Source: an uncultured Archangiaceae bacterium (GTDB lineage Bacteria; Myxococcota; Myxococcia; Myxococcales; Myxococcaceae). Taken from it: a stretch of 32,237 nt of DNA. A program made the position numbers and the translations under genes. Position 1 is the first letter of the stretch; each line of letters begins with the position of its first letter. The notes below the pieces were generated by a model. The model searched no databases. It was not told the DNA's origin and was given only the letters and a program-made list of their open reading frames with translations. Positions 11,721 through 24,017 of the stretch are shown piece after piece. The stretch spans positions 1 through 32,237 of the forward strand of contig CBFGSI010000086.1 of assembly GCA_965651385.1 (NCBI GenBank), in the 5' to 3' direction.

Positions 11721-14345
11721 ATGAGACTCGACAAGTTCACGGTGAAGGCGCAGGAGGCGATCCAGGAGGGCCAGTCGCTGGCTCGCCGGGCCGACAACCC
11801 CAACTACGAGCCAGAGCACCTGGCCGCGGCGCTGCTGGGTCAGAAGGACGGCATCGTGGAGCCGATCCTTCGGAAGATCGGAGCGGACACGAAGCTGTTC
11901 GCGGCGCGGCTGGGAGAGGCGCTGCAGAAGCTGCCGCGCATGCAGGGGGGCGAGAGCGCCATGCTCAGCCAACGCCTGCTGAAGACGTTCGACAAGGCCG
12001 AGGACGAGGCCAAGGGGCTCAAGGACGAGTTCGTCTCCTCCGAGCATCTGTTGCTGGCGCTGTGCCATGACAAGGGCGCGGTGGGCGAGGTGCTCAAATC
12101 CTCGGGCGTGACGCGCGATCGGGTGCTGTCGGGCATCAAGGACGTGCGCGGCTCGGCGCGCGTCACCAGCCAGGACGCGGAGGCCACCTACCGCGCGCTG
12201 GAGAAGTACGGCCGGGATCTGACGGAGTCGGCGCGCTCGGGCAAGCTGGATCCCGTCATTGGCCGGGACGAGGAGATCCGCCGCTGCGTCCAGGTGCTCA
12301 GCCGGCGCACGAAGAACAACCCGGTGCTCATCGGCGAGCCGGGCGTGGGCAAGACGGCGATCGCCGAGGGGCTGGCGCGGCGCATCGTAGATGGGGACGT
12401 GCCCGAGAGCCTGAAGAACAAGCGGCTCATCGCCCTGGATCTGGGGGCGATGGTGGCCGGCGCCAAGTATCGCGGCGAGTTCGAGGAGCGGCTCAAGGCG
12501 GTGCTCAAGGAGATCGCGGACTCGGCCGGCGAGGTCATCCTGTTCATCGACGAGATGCACACGCTCGTGGGCGCGGGCAAGGCCGAGGGGGCCATGGACG
12601 CGGGCAACATGCTCAAGCCGGCGCTGGCGCGCGGCGAGCTGCACTGCATCGGCGCGACGACGCTGGATGAGTACCGCAAGCACATCGAGAAGGACGCGGC
12701 GCTGGAGCGGCGCTTCCAGCCGGTGATGGTGGGCGAGCCCAGCGTGCACGACACGATCAGCATCCTGCGAGGCCTGAAGGAGCGCTACGAGGTGCACCAC
12801 GGCGTGCGCATCCAGGACAACGCCCTGGTGGCCGCGGCCACGCTCTCCCACCGCTACATCGCCGACCGGTTCCTGCCGGACAAGGCGATCGATCTGGTGG
12901 ATGAGGCCTCCAGCCGGCTGCGCATCGAGATCGACTCGATGCCCACCGAGATCGACGACGTGCGCCGGAAGATGACGCAGTTGGAGATCGAGCGCGAGGG
13001 GCTGAAGAAGGAGACGGATCCGCACTCGAAGGAGCGCCTGGGCCAGATCGAGAGGGAGCTGGCGGACCTCAGGGAGCGCTTCACCTCGCTCAAGGCGCAC
13101 TGGGACGCGGAGAAGGAGGCCATCACCGCCATCCGCTCGCTGAAGGAGAAGCTGGAGAAGGCGAAGAACGATCAGGCGGCGGCCGAGCGTCAGGGCGACC
13201 TGAACCGGGCGGCGGAGTTGAAGTTCGGCGTGCTCCCCTCGCTGGAGAAGGAGCTGGCGGGGCACAACGCGAAGCTGGCCGAGCTGCAGAAGAGCCAGAA
13301 GTTCCTCAAGGAGGAGGTGGACGCGGAGGACATCGCCCAGGTGGTGGCCAAGTGGACGGGCATCCCCGTGTCCAAGCTGATGGAGGGTGAGGTCCAGAAG
13401 CTGGTGAAGATGGAGGAGCGGCTGGCCGAGCGGGTGATCGGGCAGCGCAGCCCGATCGAGGCGGTGTCCAACGCGGTGCGCCGGGCGCGCAGCGGGTTGC
13501 AGGATCCGAACCGGCCCATCGGCTCGTTCATCTTCCTGGGCCCCACGGGCGTGGGCAAGACGGAGACGGCCAAGGCGCTGGCCGAGTTCCTGTTCGATGA
13601 CGACAGCGCGATGATCCGCATCGACATGTCGGAGTACATGGAGAAGCACTCGGTGGCGCGGCTGGTAGGCGCACCTCCGGGGTACGTGGGCTACGAGGAG
13701 GGCGGGCAGCTCACGGAGGCGGTGCGGCGGCGGCCGTACTCGGTGATCCTGTTCGACGAGATCGAGAAGGCGCACCACGACGTGTTCAACATCCTGCTGC
13801 AGATCCTGGACGAGGGCCGGCTGACAGACAGCCAGGGGCGCACGGTGGACTTCAAGAACACAGTGCTGATCCTCACGTCGAACATCGGCTCGCAGGCGCT
13901 GCAGGAGGGGATGGCCGGCAAGGAGACGCTGGACGAGGGCACGCGCAATGAGGTGATGGAGGCGCTGCGGGGACACTTCCGGCCGGAGTTCCTCAACCGG
14001 GTGGATGAGATCGTCCTGTTCGAGCCGCTGAAGAAGACGGAGATCCACCGGATCGTGGATCTGCAACTGAAGCGCCTGCAGAAGCTGCTGGCGGAGAAGC
14101 GGCTGACGCTGGAGCTGACGGACAAGGCGCGCAACCTCCTGGCGGAGCGCGGGTACGATCCGACGTACGGGGCTCGGCCATTGAAGCGGGCGATGCAGAA
14201 GTTCGTGATGGATCCGCTGGCGCTGAAGGTGCTGGGGGGCGAGTTCACGCCAGGGGACCACATCCAGGCGGACGCGACGGCGGAGGGGCTGACGTTCGGG
14301 AAGGTGCTGGTGGACAACTCGCGGTCAGAGAAGAAGTCAGCCTGA
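11721..14345 (+). CDS. clpB: Chaperone ClpB (Hsp100 disaggregase)
   Basis: 874 aa with two AAA+ modules (GEPGVGKT and GPTGVGKT Walker A) and a long M-domain coiled coil between them. The characteristic N-terminus is [23 protein letters not shown]. Confidence 0.95.
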
Positions 14346-15716
14346 CCCGGCCCCGGAATCCTTCGGGGCCGCCCCCTCTCCTCGCAGCTCCAGCCGGCTG
14401 CGGATGTACGCCAGGTGCAGGCGCAGGCTGTAGAACTCATCCATATAACTCAGCGGCACCTTCACGCCGCCCAGCTCATGCTCGAGCTGCTCGAGGAGCT
14501 CGAGATCCTGCCTCACCTGCTCGGAGGCAGGCGTGCCACGCAGGCGCTCGTCGATCTCGCGCAGCCGCGCATACCAGCGATAGATGCGCGAGCGGATGCT
14601 CCAGCGATACAGCGGCGGAGTGAGCCGCAGCAGCGGCAGGAGCACGACAAACAGAGGGATGAGCAGGATGATGAAGCGGTTGATGAGGGCGGCGAGCCAG
14701 AAGGGCAGGATACGCCGCAGGAAGTTGGGGCCGTGCGTGAGGTAGTACCGGGCCTGATCGCTGACGGGCAGCTCCGTGAGGCTGGCCTTGGGAAAGGTCC
14801 CTGGCTCGCTGAGCAGATCGCCGCTTCGGTGGACCTCCACGGCCGCCTCGGCCAGCAGCACGATCACGGCCGGGTGCAGGCCCTTGCGCGTCACCAGGAC
14901 CGCCGCGGGCGCGACCATCTGCACATCCTGCCGAGGCAGGTCTCGCGCCAGATCCAACGAGCCACGGTACAGGGTGACGGGCGACAGGTAGCGGAACCTG
15001 CGGGCATAGGCCTGGACCTGCTCGAGGCTCATGAGCCGCACGCCCGGCGTGGCCAGCAGGTCGACGAGGTCCGGGGCAGTGGGCGCCATGACGAAGATGG
15101 CCGCGTCGATCGAGCCCTCCCGCAGCGCCGCGGCAGCCTGGGCTCCTCCCAGATCCAGGAGCGCGGTGCCGTGCTCCTCACCGAGCGCGCCGCTGGCGTT
15201 CAGCAACTCCATGGCCAGGGCCCGCGCGCCGCTGCCCTCGGGGCCGATCGCGATGCGCCGCCCCCCGAGCTGTCCAAGCAGGCCCAGCTCCTGCTCTCCC
15301 CGGTAGAAGACCCACATGGGCTCCAGGTACAGGCTGGCCACCGCGGCCAGCGCCTTGCGCTGCTTCTCCTCCGTGGGCGCGGTGCCCCCTTGCACGATGG
15401 CGGCTTCGACCAGGGAGTCATCGGCCCCCAGCAGCGCATAGTTCTCGATGGAGCCAGCCGTCTCTCGAACGACGAGCTCGATCCCCGCCTCCCGGAAGTG
15501 CTCGGCGTACTGACGCGCCGCTGCGTGGTACGCGCCGCTCGCCGAGCCAGTGGCGATGACGATCCTCTCCGGAGGCGCCGGCTCGATGAACTGCCACGTC
15601 ACGGCCAGAGCCGCGGCCACCACGACGGCCACCACGGCGGCCAGGCGCCATCTCTCCAGGCGCGATGCCCATGAATGAGAATCCACTGCCACACAGGGTG
15701 CGGGGGGCTGACACAT
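14337..15716 (-). CDS. TAXI-family TRAP-type solute-binding protein fused to a C-terminal transmembrane/coiled region (orphan, no DctQM nearby)
   Basis: [47 protein letters not shown] matches the TAXI (COG2358-like) periplasmic binding fold. The C-terminal ~120 aa carry hydrophobic helices ([28 protein letters not shown]) and a charged helical tail. The N-terminus has a TM/signal-anchor ([19 protein letters not shown]). Its 3' end overlaps the clpB 3' end by 9 nt. Start uncertain. Confidence 0.65.
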
Positions 15717-15781: not shown

Positions 15782-16201
15782 TCAGGGGACGAGCCGCAGG
15801 AGCTGCTCCACCTGCTCCCGCACCTCGCCCAGGAGTAACGGATCACTCACCGCGATGAACACCGTGTCATCCCCGGCGATGGTGCCAGCGACTCCGCTCA
15901 AGTGCGGCGCGCGATCCACCATCACCCCCACGATGGACGCGTAGCCAGGTGCCGTCTTGAGCACCAGCATGTTGGGCGGAGCCTCCACCACCTTCACGCC
16001 CCGGGCCTCGGGCGCCATGGGCTCGACGCGCTGGTAGCGCCCCCCCACCTTCTGGATCGACAGGCGCTTGAGGTGCCGCGAGAGCGTGGACTGGCTCGGC
16101 GCATGGCCCTCGGCTTCCAGCAGCCGCTGGAGCGCCGCCTGATCGCTGATCTCTTGTGCCTCCAGCAACCGGAGGATCGCTTCGTCCAGCCCCATGGCCA
16201 T
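15782..16201 (-). CDS. argR: Arginine repressor ArgR
   Basis: LDEAILRLLEAQEISDQAALQRLLEAEGHAPSQSTLSRHLKRLSIQKV (winged-helix DNA-binding domain, AhrC/ArgR-like) plus a C-terminal arginine-binding oligomerisation domain (GTIAGDDTVFIAV...). Candidate starts are ATG 16201/16195 (MAMGLDE...) or an upstream TTG (16237) or ATG (16213). The 5' end lies inside the ARG-box cluster. Confidence 0.85.
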   Translation of the reverse strand: MAMGLDEAILRLLEAQEISDQAALQRLLEAEGHAPSQSTLSRHLKRLSIQKVGGRYQRVEPMAPEARGVKVVEAPPNMLVLKTAPGYASIVGVMVDRAPHLSGVAGTIAGDDTVFIAVSDPLLLGEVREQVEQLLRLVP

Positions 16202-16211
16202 GCCCGGAACC

Positions 16212-16356
16212 ATGCATGCGCCTGCATATGCATGCAAGCGGACCGTGAAAAATCCCGCGGGAAATCACGGAAATTTTGAGTATTGCGCTGCGCGTCGAAA
16301 TGCATATTATGCGCCCCCTCTCCGGGAGCACTGCATATTCATGCATGAATATGCAT
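16212..16356. promoter_or_regulatory. Cluster of ARG-box-like AT-rich palindromes in the argR / arg-operon divergent control region
   Basis: Three TGCAT/ATGCA-based palindromic sites sit in an otherwise 70% GC context: ATGCATGCGCCTGCATATGCATGCA (about 16212-16236), ATGCATATTATGC (about 16300-16312), and a perfect 24-bp palindrome TGCATATTCATGCATGAATATGCA (16332-16355) containing ATTCA..TGAAT half-sites. They lie about 35 bp upstream of the argF' start and overlap the argR 5' end. Confidence 0.6.
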
Positions 16357-16391
16357 CCGCGACCGGGCCTCCGCACCGAGAGGAACGCACC

Positions 16392-17396
16392 ATGAGGCAT
16401 CTCACCCACATCCAGGATCTGGGCCCCGCAGGCGTGGAGGAGATCCTCACGCGGGCGGTGACGTGGAAGCGCCAGTCCCCCGGCGCCGTGTTCCAGGGCC
16501 GGCTGCTGGGCATGGTCTTCTTCAACCCCAGCCTGCGTACGCGCACGTCCTTCGAGGCGGTCATGCTGCGGGCGGGTGGGCACGCCATCGTCCTGGACGT
16601 GGGCAACGGCGTGTGGAAGCTGGAGGATCGCCCCGGCGCGGTGATGAACGGGGATCGGGCTGAGCACATCCAGGAGGCGGCGCCGGTGCTCTCGCGCTTC
16701 GTGGACATGCTGGGGGTGCGCACTTTCTCGGCGGGTGGAGGCGACGAGCAGGACGAGAGCGATCCGGTCATCAACGCCTTTCGCCGGCACGTGACGGTGC
16801 CGCTGGTGAGCATGGAGTCGGCGCGGGAGCACCCGTGCCAGGGGCTGGCGGACGTGCTCACGCTGCGGGAGTCGTTCGGGGACACGCGGCGGCTGCCCGT
16901 GACGCTGACATGGGCGCCGCACATCAAGCCGCTACCGAAGGCGGTGCCCAACTCGTTCCTGCTCACCGCGGCGGCGGCGGGCTGCGAGGTGCGGGTGGCG
17001 CACCCTCCGGGCTTCGAACTGCACCCGCAGGTGCGCGCCGAGGCGGAGGCCTATGCCAAGGCCACCGGCGGCAGCATCACGTACACGCACCAGCAGGACG
17101 AGGCGCTGGCGGGCAGCCGCGCCGTGTATGCGAAGGCCTGGGGCCCGGCCACCCGCGGCGGGTATGCGCCGGGGGATGTGGCGGCGCTGATGGGCTCGTA
17201 CGCGGGCTGGATGCCCACTCGGCGCGCCATGGCCCGCGCGGCCAAGGACGCCATCTTCCTGCATTGCCTGCCGGTGCGCCGCAACGTCGAGGTCGCCGAC
17301 GACGTGCTGGATCACCCCTCCAGCCGAGTCATCAACGAGGCGGAGAACCGCTTCCACGTCCAGCGCTCGCTGATCCACTGGCTCCTGGCCGCCTGA
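16392..17396 (+). CDS. argF': Carbamoyltransferase of the OTCase/ATCase fold, probably N-acetylornithine (ArgF') rather than canonical ornithine carbamoyltransferase
   Basis: 334 aa. The carbamoyl-phosphate motif is FFNPSLRTRTSFE (SxRTR), and HCLPVRR is near the C-terminus. The OTC-specific DxxxSMG ornithine loop is absent. GAGAGGA lies upstream of the ATG. It is the first gene of the arg operon, directly downstream of the ARG boxes. Confidence 0.75.
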   Translation: MRHLTHIQDLGPAGVEEILTRAVTWKRQSPGAVFQGRLLGMVFFNPSLRTRTSFEAVMLRAGGHAIVLDVGNGVWKLEDRPGAVMNGDRAEHIQEAAPVLSRFVDMLGVRTFSAGGGDEQDESDPVINAFRRHVTVPLVSMESAREHPCQGLADVLTLRESFGDTRRLPVTLTWAPHIKPLPKAVPNSFLLTAAAAGCEVRVAHPPGFELHPQVRAEAEAYAKATGGSITYTHQQDEALAGSRAVYAKAWGPATRGGYAPGDVAALMGSYAGWMPTRRAMARAAKDAIFLHCLPVRRNVEVADDVLDHPSSRVINEAENRFHVQRSLIHWLLAA

Positions 17397-17412
17397 CACC
17401 CCGAGGTCGCAC

Positions 17413-18264
17413 GTGCCCTTCTCTCCCGATCCCTATGCGGCGCTGCGCTCCGCGGCGCGCTACGTCCGGCAGTTCCGCCGGAAGACGTTCGTGGTGCTCC
17501 TCGACGGGCCCGTGCTCGGAGAGGCCCGGCTGCGACGCGCGGTGTGCGAGCAGCTCGCCCTGCTGTGGACGTTCTCTATCCAGCCCGTGGTGGTGCACGG
17601 CGCGGGCCCGGAGGTGGACTCCCCCTTCGACGCCCTGTCGGGCCGGCTGCGCATGGACCTGCTGGCAGACCTGCAGGCCGCGGGCGTTCCCTGCGTAAGC
17701 CTGAGCGGCGTGGACGCGGGGTTGCTCAAGGGCCGGCGACGCTCCAGCGACGCGGCGGCGGAGCCTGGCGCCGAGAGCGGCCGGCCGGGAGGCTATGGCC
17801 TGATCGGTGACATCGAGTCCGTGGATACGCGGCTGCTGCAGCACCTGCGTACCGGGGACTATGTGCCGGTGGTGGCTCCGCTCGCGGGCGATCCCTCGGG
17901 CGCTGTCTACAACGCGAGTGCGGACACGGTGGCCGCGACGCTGGCGGCGGCGCTTGGCGCCGAAAAGCTCTTCTTCCTGCTGCCAACGCCCGGCCTGCTC
18001 CGGGAGCCGACGGAGCCCACCTCGCTCATTCCCCAGGCCACGCTCGTGGATCTGGCGGCGCTGGAGCAGGAGGGCCGGCTGCTCGGCTCGCTCCAATCCA
18101 AGGCCCACGCCATCCGCCACGCCTTGGTGAACGGGGTGGGCAGCGTGCACCTGGTGAGCGGCGTGCTGCCCAACGCCTTGCTGGAGGAGGTCTTCACCAA
18201 CGAGGGCAGCGGCACCATGGTGCTGAGGGAGGCTCCCGCGCGGAGCCCGGGAGGGGAATCATGA
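17413..18264 (+). CDS. argB: Amino-acid kinase family, acetylglutamate kinase ArgB
   Basis: GTG start. VVVHGAGPEV and NASADTVAATLAAALGAEKLFFL are typical NAGK segments. The N-terminal glycine-rich motif is divergent (FVVLLDG instead of VIKxGG). The stop overlaps the next gene (ATGA). Confidence 0.75.
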   Translation: MPFSPDPYAALRSAARYVRQFRRKTFVVLLDGPVLGEARLRRAVCEQLALLWTFSIQPVVVHGAGPEVDSPFDALSGRLRMDLLADLQAAGVPCVSLSGVDAGLLKGRRRSSDAAAEPGAESGRPGGYGLIGDIESVDTRLLQHLRTGDYVPVVAPLAGDPSGAVYNASADTVAATLAAALGAEKLFFLLPTPGLLREPTEPTSLIPQATLVDLAALEQEGRLLGSLQSKAHAIRHALVNGVGSVHLVSGVLPNALLEEVFTNEGSGTMVLREAPARSPGGES

Positions 18265-19328
18265 CGCCTGCTGCCCTGCTCGAGGCCCTCGTGGCCACGC
18301 CCAGCGTCTCTGGCCATGAGGAGCGTCTGGCCGATCAGGTCGCCGCCTGGGCCGAAGGCTGGGGCGCACGCGTCCACCGCCAGGGCCACAACGTGTGGTT
18401 CTCGGTGGGCCGCGGCTCGCGGCGCATGCTCGTCAACTCGCACCTGGACACGGTGCAGCCGTGCGCTGGGTGGACACTGGAGCCGCACCAGCCGGTGTGG
18501 CGCGAGGGGCGGCTGTACGGGCTGGGCAGCAATGACGCCAAGGGCTGCGTGGCGTCGATGCTGCTGGCCGCGCGCGCGCTGCTGGAGAACCCCAGCGCCC
18601 TGGAGGGGCGGGGCGAGGTCGTCTTCGCCTTCACCGCCGAGGAGGAGACGGGCGGTGCCGGGCTGGGCACGGTGCTGCCGGTGCTCGGGCCCCTGGACGC
18701 GGCCGTGGTGGGTGAGCCCACGGGGCTGAAGCCGTGCACCGCCCAGCGAGGGCTGCTGCTGCTGCGCTGCGTGGCCCATGGCCGCTCGGCGCATGTGGCG
18801 CACGCGGAGTCCGCCGAGGCCGAGAACGCCATCCACGTGGCGGCGCGGGACATCTCCCTGCTGTCCGAGCTGCGCTTCCCCCCACACCCGCTGCTGGGCG
18901 AGGCGCGGGCGCAGGTGACGCAGATCCAGGGCGGGCTGGCGCGCAACCAGGTGCCGGATCGATGCGAGTTCTTCGTGGATCTGCGCACCACGCCGGGGAT
19001 GAACCACAAGGCGGTGGCCGCGCAGCTCGCCAGCGCATTGCGCAGCGAGGTGCTGGTGCACTCCGAGCGCTACCTGCCCAAGGCCACGCCGGAGAGCGAG
19101 CCCATCGTCCGCGCGGCGGTGGCCGCCTCGGGCCTGGCGCCCGTGGGCTCGAGCACCGCGTCCGACTGGGCCTTCCTGAGCGATGTGCCCACGGTGAAGG
19201 TGGGACCTGGCGACACGCTGCGCTCGCACCGGGCCGATGAGTACCTCTCGCTGGTGGAGTTGGAGGCGGGGGTGACGTTCTACCAGCGGCTCATCCATGG
19301 CTACTTCGAGGAGGTGGCCCGTGGCTGA
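18261..19328 (+). CDS. argE: M20-family deacylase (ArgE/DapE-like), probably acetylornithine/acetylcitrulline deacetylase
   Basis: LVATPSVSGHEERLADQV...NSHLDTVQP...GSNDAKGCVASMLLAA...FTAEEETGG are M20 metal-binding and catalytic motifs. Its position in the arg operon sets the functional assignment. Confidence 0.8.
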   Translation: MTPAALLEALVATPSVSGHEERLADQVAAWAEGWGARVHRQGHNVWFSVGRGSRRMLVNSHLDTVQPCAGWTLEPHQPVWREGRLYGLGSNDAKGCVASMLLAARALLENPSALEGRGEVVFAFTAEEETGGAGLGTVLPVLGPLDAAVVGEPTGLKPCTAQRGLLLLRCVAHGRSAHVAHAESAEAENAIHVAARDISLLSELRFPPHPLLGEARAQVTQIQGGLARNQVPDRCEFFVDLRTTPGMNHKAVAAQLASALRSEVLVHSERYLPKATPESEPIVRAAVAASGLAPVGSSTASDWAFLSDVPTVKVGPGDTLRSHRADEYLSLVELEAGVTFYQRLIHGYFEEVARG

Positions 19329-20673
19329 GAGCGTGCTCTGGTCCAAGGGGCTGCCGCTGGACGAGGCCATCCACCGCTTCACGGTGGGGGATGATCCGGT
19401 GGTGGACCTGGCGCTGGTGCCGCATGACGCGCTCGGCAGCGCGGCGCACGCGCGGATGCTGGCCCGCGTGGGGCTGCTGCCCGAGGCGGACATGCGGGCG
19501 CTGGTGGCCGCCCTGCGCGCGCTCCAGGAGGAGGCTCGGGCGGGGAGCTTCACCATCCGCCCCGAGCAGGAGGACGGGCACACCGCGCTGGAGGCGGCGC
19601 TGGTGACGCGCGTGGGCGAGCCCGGGCGGCGCATCCACCTGGGCCGCTCTCGTAACGACCAGGTGCAGCTCTCGATGCGGCTGTGGCTGCGCGATCAGGC
19701 GCTGGGGCTGGGCGCTCGCGCGGCGGAGCTGGCTGGCGTCTTCCTGGACTTTGCCCAGGCGCACGCGGACGCGCCGATGCCGGGCTACACGCACCTGCGG
19801 CGCGCCATGCCGAGCACCTTCGGGCTGTGGGGCCTCGCCTTCGCCGAGGGGCTGCTGGAGGAGTTGGAGGCGCTGCGCGGCCTGTGGGCCCGGCTGGATC
19901 GCTGCCCGCTGGGCGCCGCGGCTGGCTTCGGCGTGCCGCTGCCCATCGATCGCGAGTACGTGGCGAGCCTGCTCGGCTTCTCGCGCGTGCAGCGCAGCCC
20001 CATCGACGTGCAGAACAGCCGGGGCCGGCACGAGGCGGCGGCGCTGGGGTGGGCGTGCTCGGTGGCGGGCGGCCTGGAGAAGTGGCTGTGGGACGTGGCC
20101 CTCTTCAGCACCGAGGAGTTCGGCTTCCTGGCGCTGCCGGATGCCTTCACCACCGGATCGTCCATCATGCCGCAGAAGAAGAACCCGGACGTGGTGGAGC
20201 TGGCACGCGCGCGCTGCCGGGAGCTGCGCGGCCAGGCCCGGCAGGTGGAGGAGATCGCCAGCGGGCTGCCCTCCAGCTACCACCGCGACTTCCAGCTCCT
20301 CAAGCGCCCCACCCTGGCCGCGGTGGGCTCGCTGCGGGAGCTGCTGGAGGTGCTCACGCGCCTGGTGCCCGCGCTCCAGGTCCGCGCCGAGGCCGCAGCC
20401 CGCGCCTGCGATGACACGTTGTACGCGGCGCACCAGGCCTACGTGCTGGCCGGGCGGGGCCTGCCCTTCCGAGACGCCTACCGCGAGGTGGCGCGCCAGC
20501 TCGGCGACGGCACCTTTCAGCCGGATCGCGCCGCGCTGACGGCCACGCACCTGGGCGGCGCCGGCAACCTGGGCCTGGAGCAGGCTCGCGCCGAGCTGGC
20601 CACCGCCCGCGCCTGGCTCACCGATACCCACGGCGCGCTCGCCACCTGCGCCGAGCGCGTCTGGCAACCCTGA
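19297..20673 (+). CDS. argH: Argininosuccinate lyase
   Basis: 458 aa. GRSRNDQV and the fumarase/ASL signature region (GSSIMPQKKNPD) are present. An alternative GTG start at 19321 would give an 8-nt overlap with argE instead of 32 nt. Confidence 0.95.
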   Translation: MATSRRWPVAESVLWSKGLPLDEAIHRFTVGDDPVVDLALVPHDALGSAAHARMLARVGLLPEADMRALVAALRALQEEARAGSFTIRPEQEDGHTALEAALVTRVGEPGRRIHLGRSRNDQVQLSMRLWLRDQALGLGARAAELAGVFLDFAQAHADAPMPGYTHLRRAMPSTFGLWGLAFAEGLLEELEALRGLWARLDRCPLGAAAGFGVPLPIDREYVASLLGFSRVQRSPIDVQNSRGRHEAAALGWACSVAGGLEKWLWDVALFSTEEFGFLALPDAFTTGSSIMPQKKNPDVVELARARCRELRGQARQVEEIASGLPSSYHRDFQLLKRPTLAAVGSLRELLEVLTRLVPALQVRAEAAARACDDTLYAAHQAYVLAGRGLPFRDAYREVARQLGDGTFQPDRAALTATHLGGAGNLGLEQARAELATARAWLTDTHGALATCAERVWQP

Positions 20674-20701
20674 AACAACGCAGCGAGGAACCTGAGGAAC
20701 C

Positions 20702-21892
20702 ATGAGCAAGAAACCCGTGGTGCTGGCCTTCTCCGGCGGCTTGGACACCTCCTTCTGCGTGGTCTACCTGCGCGAGCAGGGCCATGCGGTCACCACCGTC
20801 ACCGTGGACACCGGGGGCTTCCCGGCGGACGCGCTGGCGCGCATGGCCGAGCACTCGGCCCGTCTGGGCGCGGTGGCCCACCACACGGTGGATGCGCGCG
20901 CGCTGCTCTTCGAGGACTACCTGCGCCACCTGCTCGCGGGCAACGTGCTGCGCGGCCAGGCCTACCCGCTGAGCGTGTCCGCCGAGCGCGTGTGCCAGGC
21001 CTCCGAGGTGGTGCGGGTGGCGCGTGAGGTGGGCGCCCAGGCGCTGGCCCACGGCTCCACGGGCGCGGGCAATGATCAGGTGCGCTTCGACGTGGCCTTC
21101 CGCGCGCTGGCGCCGCACCTGGAGCTGATCACTCCCATTCGTGAGCTGGGGCTCAGCCGGGCGCAGGAGATGTCCTTCCTGGCCGAGCGCGGCTTCCACC
21201 TGCCGGCGAAGACGGGGGCCTACTCCGTCAACGAGGGCATGTGGGGCACCAGCGTGGGAGGCCAGGAGACGCACGACTCGTGGAGCGCGCTGCCCGAGGC
21301 GGCCTACCCCGGCGGCCAGGTGCCCTCGGATCTGAAGCCGCGCACGCTGGTGCTGAGCTTCGAGCGTGGGCGTCCGGTGGCGCTGGATGGGAAGGCCCTG
21401 TCACCCGTGGAGCTCATCTCCGAGCTGAACGCGCTGGGCCAGCCCTACGGCGTGGGGCGCGGCATCCACCTGGGAGACACGATCCTGGGCATCAAGGGCC
21501 GCGTGGGCTTCGAGGCGCCTGCGGCGATCATGCTCATCACCGCGCACCGGGAGCTGGAGAAGCTGGTGCTCTCGGGCAAGCAGCTCTTCTGGAAGGAGAC
21601 GCTGGGCAACCTCTACGGCACGCTGCTGCACGAGGGGCACTTCTTCGATCCGCTGGCGCGGGACGTGGAGGCGTACCTGACTTCCTCGCAGGAGCGGGTG
21701 ACGGGCGAGGCGCGGCTGACGCTGTACCCGCACGCGGTGGCGGTGGAGGGGGTACGCTCGCCGCACTCGCTCATGGATGCGAAGGTGGCCAGCTACGGCG
21801 AGGCCAACCACCTGTGGACCGGAGCGGAGGCCGCGGGGTTCGCCAAGGTGTACGGCGTGGCGCAGACGCTGGCGCTCCAGGTGAAGCCATGA
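20702..21892 (+). CDS. argG: Argininosuccinate synthase
   Basis: MSKKPVVLAFSGGLDTS (PP-loop), then AHGSTGAGNDQVRFD and further full-length matches. 396 aa. Confidence 0.95.
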   Translation: MSKKPVVLAFSGGLDTSFCVVYLREQGHAVTTVTVDTGGFPADALARMAEHSARLGAVAHHTVDARALLFEDYLRHLLAGNVLRGQAYPLSVSAERVCQASEVVRVAREVGAQALAHGSTGAGNDQVRFDVAFRALAPHLELITPIRELGLSRAQEMSFLAERGFHLPAKTGAYSVNEGMWGTSVGGQETHDSWSALPEAAYPGGQVPSDLKPRTLVLSFERGRPVALDGKALSPVELISELNALGQPYGVGRGIHLGDTILGIKGRVGFEAPAAIMLITAHRELEKLVLSGKQLFWKETLGNLYGTLLHEGHFFDPLARDVEAYLTSSQERVTGEARLTLYPHAVAVEGVRSPHSLMDAKVASYGEANHLWTGAEAAGFAKVYGVAQTLALQVKP

Positions 21893-22950
21893 AAGTGCAC
21901 GTGGACAAGGTCGGCAGCGTCACCCGCAACCTGCGGCTGGGGCGCACGGTGCACCTCACCTCCGAGATCCAGGCCATGGAGGGCGCCGTGCTCGCGGCGC
22001 GGATTCATGGGGAGAAGTCCAGCTACAACGAGCTCGAGGACGAGCACGGGCGGCTGGTGAAGCTGCACGACGGCGACATCATCGTGGGGGCGCTGGGCCA
22101 CCGCAACGCGCTGCATGGATACGAGGGCGTGGTGCCGGAGCGGGTGGTGGAGGGGCAGCGGCTGCACGTGCTCAACATGGGCGGGGTGATCGGCCAGTGC
22201 ACCTCGCACAACCCGGGGGTAGGCACACCCTTCGAGGCGGAGGTGCTGGGCCAGGTGCTGATGTTCCCCGACTTCCAGTCGCGCGAGGGGCAGCCGGCCC
22301 ACATCCGGGCCGGAGCGCTGAAGGGCTCGGCCGGGCCGGTGGGCATTCCCGTGGTGTACGTGGTGGGCACGTGCATGAACGCGGGGAAGACGTACGCCTC
22401 GTGCGCGCTGGTGCGGCGGTTGATGCAGGCTGGCTACCGGGTGGGCGGGGCGAAGCTCACGGGCGTGTCGCTCATGCGGGACACGCTGAGCATGCGGGAC
22501 TCGGGCGCGGAGGTGGTCATGGACTTCACGGATGCGGGCACGGTGTGCACGAGCCCGAAGTCCGCGGCGTGGGTGACGCGCATCATCCTGTCCGAGCTGG
22601 CTGCCTCCGAGGTGGACGTGATCGTCGCGGAGACAGGGGATGGGATCATGGGCGAGTACGGCGTGCAGGCGATCCTCGGGGATCCGGCGCTGCGCGAGCT
22701 GGGGGCGGCGTGGGTGCTGTGCGCGAATGATCCCGTGGGGGCCTCGGGCGGGGTGCGCCACCTGCGCGAGGCCTATGGCATCCAGGCGGACGTGGTGTCC
22801 GGGCCGGCGACGGACAATCGGGTGGGCATCCGCTTCGTGGAGCGTGAGGTGGGGTTGCCCGCTCACAACGCCCGGGCGGACGCCGCGGGCCTGGGTGGGT
22901 TGATTCTCGAGAAGATCGCGCCGCAGCTCGCGGGGAGGAAGAGCGCATGA
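21889..22950 (+). CDS. Conserved hypothetical protein (353 aa) embedded in the arg operon, with a P-loop-like GTCMNAGKT motif, possibly DUF1611-like
   Basis: The ATG overlaps the argG stop (ATGA) and its own stop overlaps the argC ATG (ATGA). GC3 is high. The N-terminal ~130 aa are followed by VVYVVGTCMNAGKTYASCALVRRLMQAGYRVGGAKLTG and a Rossmann-like remainder. There is no GNAT, aminotransferase or ArgJ signature. The track's 569-aa ORF (21241..22950) is this gene fused to an out-of-frame read-through of argG. Confidence 0.6.
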   Translation: MKVHVDKVGSVTRNLRLGRTVHLTSEIQAMEGAVLAARIHGEKSSYNELEDEHGRLVKLHDGDIIVGALGHRNALHGYEGVVPERVVEGQRLHVLNMGGVIGQCTSHNPGVGTPFEAEVLGQVLMFPDFQSREGQPAHIRAGALKGSAGPVGIPVVYVVGTCMNAGKTYASCALVRRLMQAGYRVGGAKLTGVSLMRDTLSMRDSGAEVVMDFTDAGTVCTSPKSAAWVTRIILSELAASEVDVIVAETGDGIMGEYGVQAILGDPALRELGAAWVLCANDPVGASGGVRHLREAYGIQADVVSGPATDNRVGIRFVEREVGLPAHNARADAAGLGGLILEKIAPQLAGRKSA

Positions 22951-24017
22951 CACGGGTTCACGCTTACGTGCTGGGGGCTGCTGGCTTCGGCGGGGGTGAG
23001 CTACTCCGGTTGCTGTCCGGGCACCCCTCGGTGGCCGCCGTGCGCGCGGTGTCCCGTCCCCACGCGGACATGCCCCTCTACAAGGTGCACCCGCACCTGC
23101 GCGGGCTCATGGAAGGGCGCTTCGACGCGGAGCCAGACTGGCGGTGGCTGACGGACTCGCCGCAGCCGGTGGTCTTCTCCGTGCTGGAGGAAGAGGAGCT
23201 GGCCCGGCAGCTCCCCGCGCTGGAGAAGCAGTGGGCGGAGCTGAAGCTCAATGAGCGGCTCGTGCTGGTGGACCTTTCCCCGGACTTCCGGCTGGAGCAC
23301 CCGGGGCGCTACGCGGCGACGCATGGCCGACCCCACCCGGCGCCGGAGCTGCTCGAGCGCTTCGTGTACGGGCTTCCCGAGTGGCGGCGTGAGAAGCTCA
23401 AGGGGGCCCGGCGCATCGCCAACCCGGGCTGCTTCGCCACGGCCGTGCAACTGGGGCTGTTGCCAGTAGCCTCGACGCCGGGCCTGGGGCTGATCGCGGC
23501 GACGGCGATGACGGGATCGTCCGGCTCGGGGGCGTTGCCGGGCGAGGTCACCCACCACCCCACCCGCGCGCATGACTTCCGCGCGTACCGGGCGCTGGAG
23601 CACCCGCAGGAGGCGGAGATGGATGTGATGCTGGTGGCGCACAAGGCCTCGCGCCACAGGCTCACCTTCGTGCCGCACTCAGCGCCTCTCGTGCGAGGGA
23701 TCTTCGCCACGGTGCAGTTCGAGTGGCCGGAGAACGCCGGGGGCGTGAGCACCGAGTCCCTGAGCGCGATCTTCCGGCGCTACTATGAAGGCTCCCCGCT
23801 CGTGCGGGTGGTGGAGGGGACTCCGCGGCTGGCCTCGGTCGTGGGCAGCAACTTCTGCGACATCGCCGTGGCCACTCGGGGGCGCACGGTCGCGGTGATG
23901 GTGGCCCTGGACAACCTGGTCAAGGGCATGGCCGGGCAGGCCGTGCAGAACATGAACGTGGCGCTCGGCCTGCCCGAGGACACCGCCCTGCGACAGGCGG
24001 CCTGCTACCCCTGCTGA
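22947..24017 (+). CDS. argC: N-acetyl-gamma-glutamyl-phosphate reductase
   Basis: VLGAAGFGGGELLRLL (NAD(P)-binding), RIANPGCFATAVQLGLLP (active-site Cys) and a C-terminal dimerisation domain. 356 aa. Confidence 0.9.
   Translation: MTRVHAYVLGAAGFGGGELLRLLSGHPSVAAVRAVSRPHADMPLYKVHPHLRGLMEGRFDAEPDWRWLTDSPQPVVFSVLEEEELARQLPALEKQWAELKLNERLVLVDLSPDFRLEHPGRYAATHGRPHPAPELLERFVYGLPEWRREKLKGARRIANPGCFATAVQLGLLPVASTPGLGLIAATAMTGSSGSGALPGEVTHHPTRAHDFRAYRALEHPQEAEMDVMLVAHKASRHRLTFVPHSAPLVRGIFATVQFEWPENAGGVSTESLSAIFRRYYEGSPLVRVVEGTPRLASVVGSNFCDIAVATRGRTVAVMVALDNLVKGMAGQAVQNMNVALGLPEDTALRQAACYPC

Follow-up and report, generated by a model that had tools for sequence, protein, structure and literature searches.

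The window analyzed here (the whole 32,237-nt stretch of DNA) contains an arginine biosynthesis locus composed of argR (15782–16201, minus strand; 139 aa from a conserved ATG at 16201) and a divergent operon located on the plus strand (16392–24017). According to NCBIfam and Pfam assignments, the operon consists of argF′, its first gene (16392–17396; NF003384, 432 bits), argB (17413–18264), an argE-like deacylase gene (18261–19328), argH (19297–20673), argG (20702–21892), orf353 (21889–22950; 353 aa) and argC (22947–24017). These genes adjoin or overlap one another, and all of the arg genes of the 32-kb window belong to this single operon. The family profiles confirmed that the stretch of interest (16212–16356) lies, as stated in the initial annotation, between argR on the minus strand and the argF′-led arg operon on the plus strand. 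The ribosome-binding site of argF′ (16378–16385, plus strand; GAGAGGAA) has an AGGA that precedes the ATG at 16392 by 7 nt. Beyond argR, NCBIfam and Pfam identified clpB (11721–14345, plus strand) and a gene encoding a TAXI-like solute-binding protein (14337–15716, minus strand).

Exact-protein look-up yielded nine orthologous myxobacterial loci (L081–L087, L089 and L090), all with the identical divergent argR/argF′-B-E-H-G-orf353-argC order. In the locus of a gammaproteobacterial MAG (L088) the order is argD-argF′-B-H-G-orf351-argC.

Three proteins encoded at this locus merit separate mention. Orf353 was not assigned to any family (DUF1611 scored 19 bits, below the cut-off); its gene is placed between argG and argC in every myxobacterial locus fetched, and the protein is 66% identical to the product of a 351-aa ORF in the arg operon of L088. 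It fits the description of ACG33_RS14135 of Steroidobacter, a putative alternative N-succinylglutamate synthase (preprint 10.1101/2024.10.14.618325). ArgF′ carries, at approximately residue 90, an Ala aligned with Glu92 of the Xanthomonas N-acetylornithine carbamoyltransferase (AOTCase) (..NGDRAEHIQE.. vs ..DGDTEEHIAE..); its best PDB match is a 3l02 chain with Ala at this position, while the other AOTCase chains have Glu. Under the residue rule of Shi et al. (2007), as quoted elsewhere, this Ala predicts specificity for N-succinylornithine rather than N-acetylornithine, contrary to the NCBIfam name. Finally, the gene that immediately follows argC, on the other strand (24005–26869, minus strand), encodes a 954-aa homolog of vault proteins. 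This protein contains the full Major Vault Protein domain set (MVP_shoulder, 4.5e-45; Vault_2, 9e-33; Vault, 3e-30; plus Vault_3 and Vault_4), and a literature search for a bacterial or myxobacterial major vault protein turned up nothing.

Repeats and ARG boxes in the argR/argF′ intergenic region

The GC content of the stretch at 16212–16356 (50.3%) is the lowest of any 145-bp interval of the 32 kb, although the "AT-rich island" described initially is AT-rich only relative to the 68.8% average of the window. It harbors all five TATGCA/TGCATA hexamers of the window (within 16223–16355) and 13 of its 39 TGCAT pentamers (both strands), but TGAAT/ATTCA occurs there just twice. The earlier description of the stretch as dominated by both kinds of repeat is thus accurate for TGCATA/TATGCA and overstated for ATTCA/TGAAT. 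Neither these repeats nor TGCAT pentamers were found in its central part (approximately 16240–16299).

Both copies of TGAAT/ATTCA lie within TGCATATTCATGCATGAATATGCA, a perfect 24-bp palindrome whose extent (exactly 16332–16355) was verified by reading of the sequence and by a repeat finder. This is the longest perfect palindrome of the window (the runners-up are 14 bp long), and in 300 simulations of the window under a first-order Markov model the maximum was 22 bp, short of this length. TGCA tetramers are placed 10 bp apart in two clusters, at 16213, 16223 and 16233 and at 16332, 16342 and 16352, respectively, and the repeat finder identified 16213–16236 as a true repeat of the architecture of the palindrome. 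This accounts for one of the two imperfect upstream sites of the initial annotation; the other (16300–16313), with its single TGCAT, is considered together with the promoter below.

Neighboring TGCA cores pair as TGCAT-N4-ATGCA, i.e. as TGAAT-N4-ATTCA in which the central A/T of the half-sites is replaced by C/G (two mismatches per core). Published ARG-box consensus sequences are TNTGAATWWWWATTCANW for E. coli, CATGAATAAAAATKCAAK for B. subtilis and AWTGCATRWWYATGCAWT for Streptomyces, the last of these having the form TGCAT-N4-ATGCA with an RWWY spacer (PMC5291005). Comparison with AWTGCATRWWYATGCAWT revealed agreement at 16 of 18 positions for both 16330–16347 and 16340–16357, and at 14 of 18 for 16221–16238. 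Moreover, TGCATGAATATGCA and the core of the argH box in S. coelicolor (TGCATGAGTATGCA) differ at a single base.

A symmetrised matrix was constructed from 37 S. coelicolor ARG boxes, as called by the authors of that study in fragments shifted by ArgR in EMSA (PMC5839063, Table 1). Its mean score over the window was −14.6 (sd 6.7), and the best training boxes reach approximately 21 bits. The three highest scores of the window fell within two putative operators, neither of which is assigned to a strand. The argF′-proximal operator, O_F (16329–16358; TGCA cores at 16332, 16342 and 16352), contains the 24-bp palindrome and is formed by box 1 (16329–16348; 20.7 bits, rank 1) and box 2 (16339–16358; 19.5 bits, rank 2), which overlap at an offset of 10 bp, with the central ATGCAT common to both; their scores are on par with those of the best training boxes. 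The argR-proximal operator, O_R (16210–16239; TGCA cores at 16213, 16223 and 16233), contains a strong box at 16220–16239 (core TGCATATGCATGCA, 16223–16236; 16.5 bits, rank 3), overlapped by a weaker one at 16210–16229 (10.1 bits, rank 8). The match ranked fourth (12.1 bits) is located inside clpB. No other strong ARG box was detected elsewhere in the 32-kb window, and motif and matrix scans found none inside the argF′-argC operon.

The canonical partner boxes, at a distance of 20 bp (16349–16368 and 16200–16219), scored only 1.7 and 2.1 bits, respectively, and retain just the proximal TGCAT. Hence O_F and O_R each keep three of four half-sites, the fourth not being conserved. On sequence grounds, such an operator may equally validly be described as "one and a half boxes" or as two boxes overlapping by 10 bp, and this overlapping, three-half-site layout is its sole mildly unusual feature.

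The clustering of boxes was also examined in the window together with 10 loci. When no more than one mismatch is allowed, TGMAT-N4-ATKCA cores number 33 in the 2.3 kb of DNA between argR and argF′, compared to 4 in the 234 kb outside it, which corresponds to a density more than 700-fold higher. The matrix was also applied to five relatives of the Hyalangium clade. In L081, L082, L084 and L089 the top four matrix matches per 20-kb locus are all placed in the argR/argF′ intergenic region, as are the top three in L083.

A weaker ARG-box-like sequence, CCATGAATGAGAATCCACTG, was observed at 15669–15688 (core TGAAT-GAGA-ATCCA with one mismatch; 11.0 bits, fifth in the window). It is situated at the 5′ end of the TAXI-like gene, some 100 bp downstream of argR and close to a TTGACG hexamer, and may represent a third ArgR target. 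The TAXI-like gene is missing from this position in the orthologous loci.

Conservation of the putative operators, the presumed argF′ promoter and the likely argR start codon

Comparison of 10 orthologous loci revealed three conserved blocks: O_R (16210–16239), TTGCGC-N16-TATTAT (16283–16310) and O_F (16329–16358). Two alignments were inspected, one (A2) comprising six sequences of the Hyalangium clade and the other (A3) the Myxococcus/Corallococcus clade. In A2, invariant islands are separated by variable spacers. They comprise (i) at O_R, ATGCA (16212–16216) and the largely invariant TGCATAT.C..GCAAG (16223–16238), (ii) at the promoter-like block, TTGCGC.GCGCGT.G (16283–16297) and TG.ATA.TAT.CG (16301–16313), (iii) at O_F, GCAT..T.AT.CA.GAATATGCA (16333–16355), and (iv) the argR start CAT (16199–16201) and the GAGG of the argF′ ribosome-binding site, a block kept in both clade alignments.

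These alignments bear on the way in which the boxes are to be parsed. In the initial annotation a lineage-specific, inverted box was proposed, in which ArgR would read ATTCA-N4-TGAAT (16337–16350) and the TGCAT repeats would be mere nesting. Such a reading could draw on the presence of ATTCA and TGAAT, once each, inside the palindrome, as well as on the conservation of TGAATATGCA in the Hyalangium clade and the recurrence of TGCATATTCA in the Myxococcus clade. However, within A2 the ATTCA at 16337–16341 has become ATTTA in three relatives and GCTTA in another, whereas every TGCA core persists, and O_R of the window, despite being conserved and scoring 16.5 bits, contains neither ATTCA nor TGAAT. 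Furthermore, both ATTC and GAAT conform to RWWY, the spacer of the known consensus, so that each pentamer can be read as a spacer extended by one base, the first of the true half-site.

The A3 alignment points in the same direction. The argR-side operator of Myxococcus and Corallococcus has the form TGCAT-N5-TGAAT-N4-ATGCA; within it, the Myxococcus TGAAT-ttcc-ATGCA combines an E. coli-type and a Streptomyces-type half-site in the normal order, a hybrid that is sensible only as TGMAT-N4-ATKCA. On the argF′ side this clade has three half-sites phased by approximately 10 bp (e.g. CGCAT-gctg-gTGCAT-attc-ATCCA) and no palindrome; these sites are degenerate, scoring approximately 10–13 bits with the Streptomyces matrix. 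Taken together, the hybrid and the phased half-sites indicate TGMAT/ATKCA as the contacts and argue against both the inverted order and an obligatory hairpin. The inverted box is therefore regarded as highly improbable, and the match to AWTGCATRWWYATGCAWT favors the parse as TGCAT-N4-ATGCA.

The palindrome might act at the RNA level, as a stem-loop of 10 bp in the 5′ leader of argF′ mRNA (affecting stability or attenuation), either instead of or besides being an operator. Indeed, folding of the leader places the palindrome in a hairpin (z-score −2.8), and in the six Hyalangium-clade sequences 95% of the cells are paired, four single-sided changes being G-U compatible on the sense strand. Nevertheless, no compensatory double change was found and three cells break the pairing, while the Myxococcus/Corallococcus clade has the phased half-sites without the palindrome, and the argR-side site, with an equal half-site plan, is not such a hairpin. 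A stem of this kind is, besides, the automatic outcome of two overlapping palindromic protein sites. An RNA role of the palindrome is thus not needed to account for these observations, and we consider it unlikely, the reading of O_F as a protein-binding site being preferred.

The conserved block between the operators contains a −35-like TTGCGC (16283–16288, plus strand), invariant in 10 of 10 myxobacterial sequences, and the second of the imperfect upstream sites mentioned above (16300–16313, plus strand), in which TGCAT (16301–16305) is followed by a −10-like TATTAT (16305–16310). Across the myxobacterial relatives the spacing of TTGCGC-N16-TATTAT is invariant and its sequence nearly so; TG-ATA-TAT is conserved in all of them at a fixed distance from TTGCGC, and in the lower-GC L088 the aligned sequence is TTGCAT-N17-TATATA. 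As a third ARG box this middle site (16297–16316) was rejected: it scores −2.4 bits, and its half-like elements are separated by N3 instead of N4. A −10 region belonging to a conserved argF′ promoter is the better explanation for it, TTGCGC-N16-TATTAT being presumed, from its conservation alone, to be that promoter. A sigma-70 consensus scan of 16100–16480 did not call any promoter; TTGCGC was passed over because it matches the −35 consensus at only 3 of 6 positions. The −10-proximal TGCAT is located at a constant distance of 30–31 bp from O_F in all relatives. The box-to-box distance between the two operators varies from 108 to 117 bp, which indicates the absence of a helical-phase constraint; looping between O_R and O_F was accordingly dropped.

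On the argR side, a candidate promoter, TTGCAT-N17-CATGGT, was discarded, since its spacing to the start codon varies among relatives. A terminator-like, GC-rich hairpin with a TTTTT run after it is present on the argR-sense strand of the intergenic region (16253–16272, minus strand). It overlaps a GTGAAAAAT block (16246–16254) that recurs in several relatives and could be part of the argR promoter, a UP-like element or an insulator.

Three in-frame ATGs (16213, 16201 and 16195) are available for argR. The one at 16201, whose CAT is invariant in the six Hyalangium-clade sequences, is the likely start, while the ATG at 16213 is not conserved. The earlier statement that the argR start codons lie inside the repeat cluster consequently applies to the non-conserved ATG at 16213, the conserved one being placed approximately 11 nt outside. 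The N-terminus of the deposited Hyalangium rubrum ArgR (L081:10001–10045; 150 aa, MHMHVHASSRRMGKD...) seems to be over-extended, the surplus codons being operator ATGCAT repeats read as Met-His.

ArgR and the distribution of its putative boxes beyond Myxococcota

The predicted ArgR of the window contains both ArgR domains (PF01316 and PF02863), as do its homologs. Its score against NCBIfam TIGR01529 (77.8 bits) is under the cut-off of 130.45 bits. The nearest solved structures are those of Bacillus ArgR/AhrC (5cj9 and 1f9n; E approximately 1e-10 to 5e-10). Both its SQSTLSR helix and its GTIAGDDT motif can be aligned to the AhrC and Mycobacterium tuberculosis ArgR structures; the former keeps the QxTLSR pattern of the recognition helix (cf. 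TQATVSR and TQATLSR), and the latter is the arginine-binding motif. Compared with AhrC, the wing and the inter-domain linker together lack approximately 14 residues, in gaps of 3, 7 and 4. In silico, this protein is thus a genuine, if divergent, ArgR that possesses an arginine-binding motif.

ArgR is 74–81% identical to its homologs from Hyalangium species and related MAGs, approximately 60–66% identical to those of Corallococcus, Myxococcus and Pyxidicoccus, and approximately 46–54% identical to those of Holophagales and uncultured Gammaproteobacteria, which belong to phyla unrelated to Myxococcota. This order of identities points to a Hyalangium-like myxobacterium as the source of the window. 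In the argR loci of the last group (L001, L002, L003 and L088), argR is divergent from an argD-argF′-led operon. The occurrence of this ArgR clade and operon in unrelated phyla, together with a conservation of orf353 exceeding that of ArgR (66% vs 54%), suggests horizontal movement of the whole argR plus argF′-type operon.

Among the distant loci of the ArgR clade, the top match of the Streptomyces matrix lay upstream of argR in two (L001 and L002); in three others (L003, L004 and L088) it did not. TGCAT-type boxes or TGCA arrays upstream of argR are also present in Holophagales, Acidobacteriota and Oligoflexus MAG loci, which shows that this type of box is not lineage-specific. The suggestion of a lineage-specific ARG box was therefore not upheld, TGCAT-N4-ATGCA being the published Streptomyces consensus as well.

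The pattern TGCAT-N4-ATGCA-N5-ATGCA was then used to scan JGI metagenome contigs. Most of the low-GC matches were 10-bp tandem repeats of TGCAT. Among the listed contigs with a GC content of at least 0.64, however, 7 of 11 have the pattern directly upstream of arginine genes: argC in four cases (L093, L143, L147 and L170), argG in two (L117 and L146), and in one (L118) the site lies between argC and argR. The remaining four contigs contain a tandem repeat (L113), a repeat-like gaatgca array (L145), an adjoining gene for an FAD-binding oxidoreductase (L148) or a HAD-family hydrolase gene (L155), neither of these two genes being related to arginine. The Arg proteins of the seven contigs are 30–35% identical to those of the window. 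A set of three phased TGCAT half-sites is thus, in GC-rich DNA, a good predictor of arg promoters well outside the lineage.

These results also bear on the possibility that the TGCAT arrays bind another regulator or constitute a non-regulatory repeat (a mobile or recombination-related palindrome). The assignment to ArgR is sequence-based, and 10-bp tandem repeats of TGCAT that have no known function are common in low-GC metagenome contigs. On the other hand, in every relative the sites are found only between argR and the arg operon, the window contains no copies elsewhere, and their scores reach those of the best sites of an experimentally derived ArgR matrix; moreover, the three-half-site pattern precedes mostly arg genes in GC-rich contigs, presumably of other phyla. 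We consequently regard this alternative as very unlikely and retain ArgR as the probable ligand of both operators.

Proposed control of the locus and relation to known ARG-box systems

The combined data support, with a probability of roughly 0.8, the identification of the stretch as the control region of a divergent argR/arg operon carrying two ArgR operators of the actinomycete TGCAT-N4-ATGCA type. The proposal made in the initial annotation, that ArgR operators control both the argF′-led operon and argR itself, gains support from the ARG-box models, conservation across 10 loci, the local enrichment of cores and the adjacent ArgR; the sites are very probably such operators. We infer ArgR binding, its dependence on arginine, the promoter and transcription starts and the direction of regulation from the nucleotide and protein sequences.

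When arginine is plentiful, a hexameric ArgR-arginine complex would bind one face of the DNA at the three 10-bp-phased TGCAT half-sites of each operator. At O_F, ArgR would block RNA polymerase and so exert feedback repression on the argF′ operon; at O_R, an equivalent block would result in autoregulation of argR. O_F is located approximately 20–50 bp downstream of TTGCGC-N16-TATTAT; if this promoter is real, argF′ transcription would start at approximately 16317 and O_F would occupy about +13 to +42, in the early transcribed region. With respect to the conserved start codon of argR, O_R lies 9–38 bp upstream, a position that implies overlap with the argR promoter or leader.

It is conceivable, though doubtful, that the divergent ArgR clade uses a distinct operator, composed of three strictly 10-bp-phased TGCAT half-sites (two complete ARG boxes with a central ATGCAT in common) instead of a four-half-site tandem. 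This clade has a shortened wing/linker and a sub-cut-off family score, and it occurs, together with an argF′-type (probably N-succinyl) operon, in Myxococcota, Holophagales and uncultured Gammaproteobacteria. If this architecture were true, a single hexamer might bind in either of two registers, or only three DNA-binding domains might be engaged.

In the literature searched, neither ArgR nor ARG boxes were found to have been treated in Myxococcus or other myxobacteria. The operator map itself appears to be undescribed, whereas the element appears to be an ARG-box operator of standard type, from a known sequence class and in its expected place. The results provide a map for the feedback control of myxobacterial arginine synthesis (two operators, a candidate promoter and a likely argR start), and correct a mis-parse, the conserved contacts being the TGCAT cores and not the ATTCA/TGAAT pentamers. 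They also extend the TGCAT variant of the ARG box beyond actinomycetes, while leaving the general understanding of ArgR regulation unchanged.

Of the known systems, that of E. coli (TNTGAATWWWWATTCANW; two 18-bp boxes, 3 bp apart) has in common with the window the palindromic arrangement of two 5-nt half-sites around a 4-nt A/T-rich spacer, as well as the placement of sites at arg promoters and at argR itself; E. coli argR is autoregulated. The Myxococcus relatives even have the E. coli-type TGAAT in one half-site. In the window, however, the center of the half-site is C/G and not A/T (two mismatches per 14-nt core), the box-to-box distance is 20 bp (10 bp if the overlapping boxes are counted) as opposed to 21 bp, and the fourth half-site is absent. 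With the B. subtilis AhrC system (CATGAATAAAAATKCAAK; boxes 2 bp apart) the window shares the register of 18+2 = 20 bp, and the K (G/T) in ATKCA already permits ATGCA. Unlike the sites of the window, those of AhrC are TGAAT-rich and very A/T-rich, and approximately 14 wing and linker residues of AhrC are lacking in the window ArgR.

With the ARG boxes of S. coelicolor and S. clavuligerus (argH, argG and argC operators; AWTGCATRWWYATGCAWT) the window has in common the TGCAT/ATGCA half-sites and the 4-nt RWWY spacer. The S. coelicolor arg operators consist of two contiguous 20-bp boxes (PMC5839063), which places TGCA cores at 0, 10, 20 and 30; the window operators correspond to the first three half-sites of this arrangement. 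Single-box sites and weak second boxes have been reported for S. coelicolor (PMC5839063), and the second boxes of Streptomyces are weak, retaining mainly the proximal TGCAT (argH, TCATGCATGAGTATGCAGAA/CTCTGCATGTTTCGTCAATC; argG, CTTTGCATGGTCATGCGTAA/TGATGCATACTCTTCCTATG). Scored with one matrix, the boxes of the window are equal to the best Streptomyces boxes, but the partner box reaches approximately 2 bits, compared to approximately 9–15 bits for the Streptomyces second boxes. The window further differs from Streptomyces in belonging to Myxococcota, in its divergent ArgR with a shorter wing and linker, and in its gene context, a divergent argR/argF′ pair in place of argCJBDR. It is likewise distinguished by the central ATGCAT of O_F, which creates two full boxes at a 10-bp offset and thereby the perfect 24-bp palindrome.
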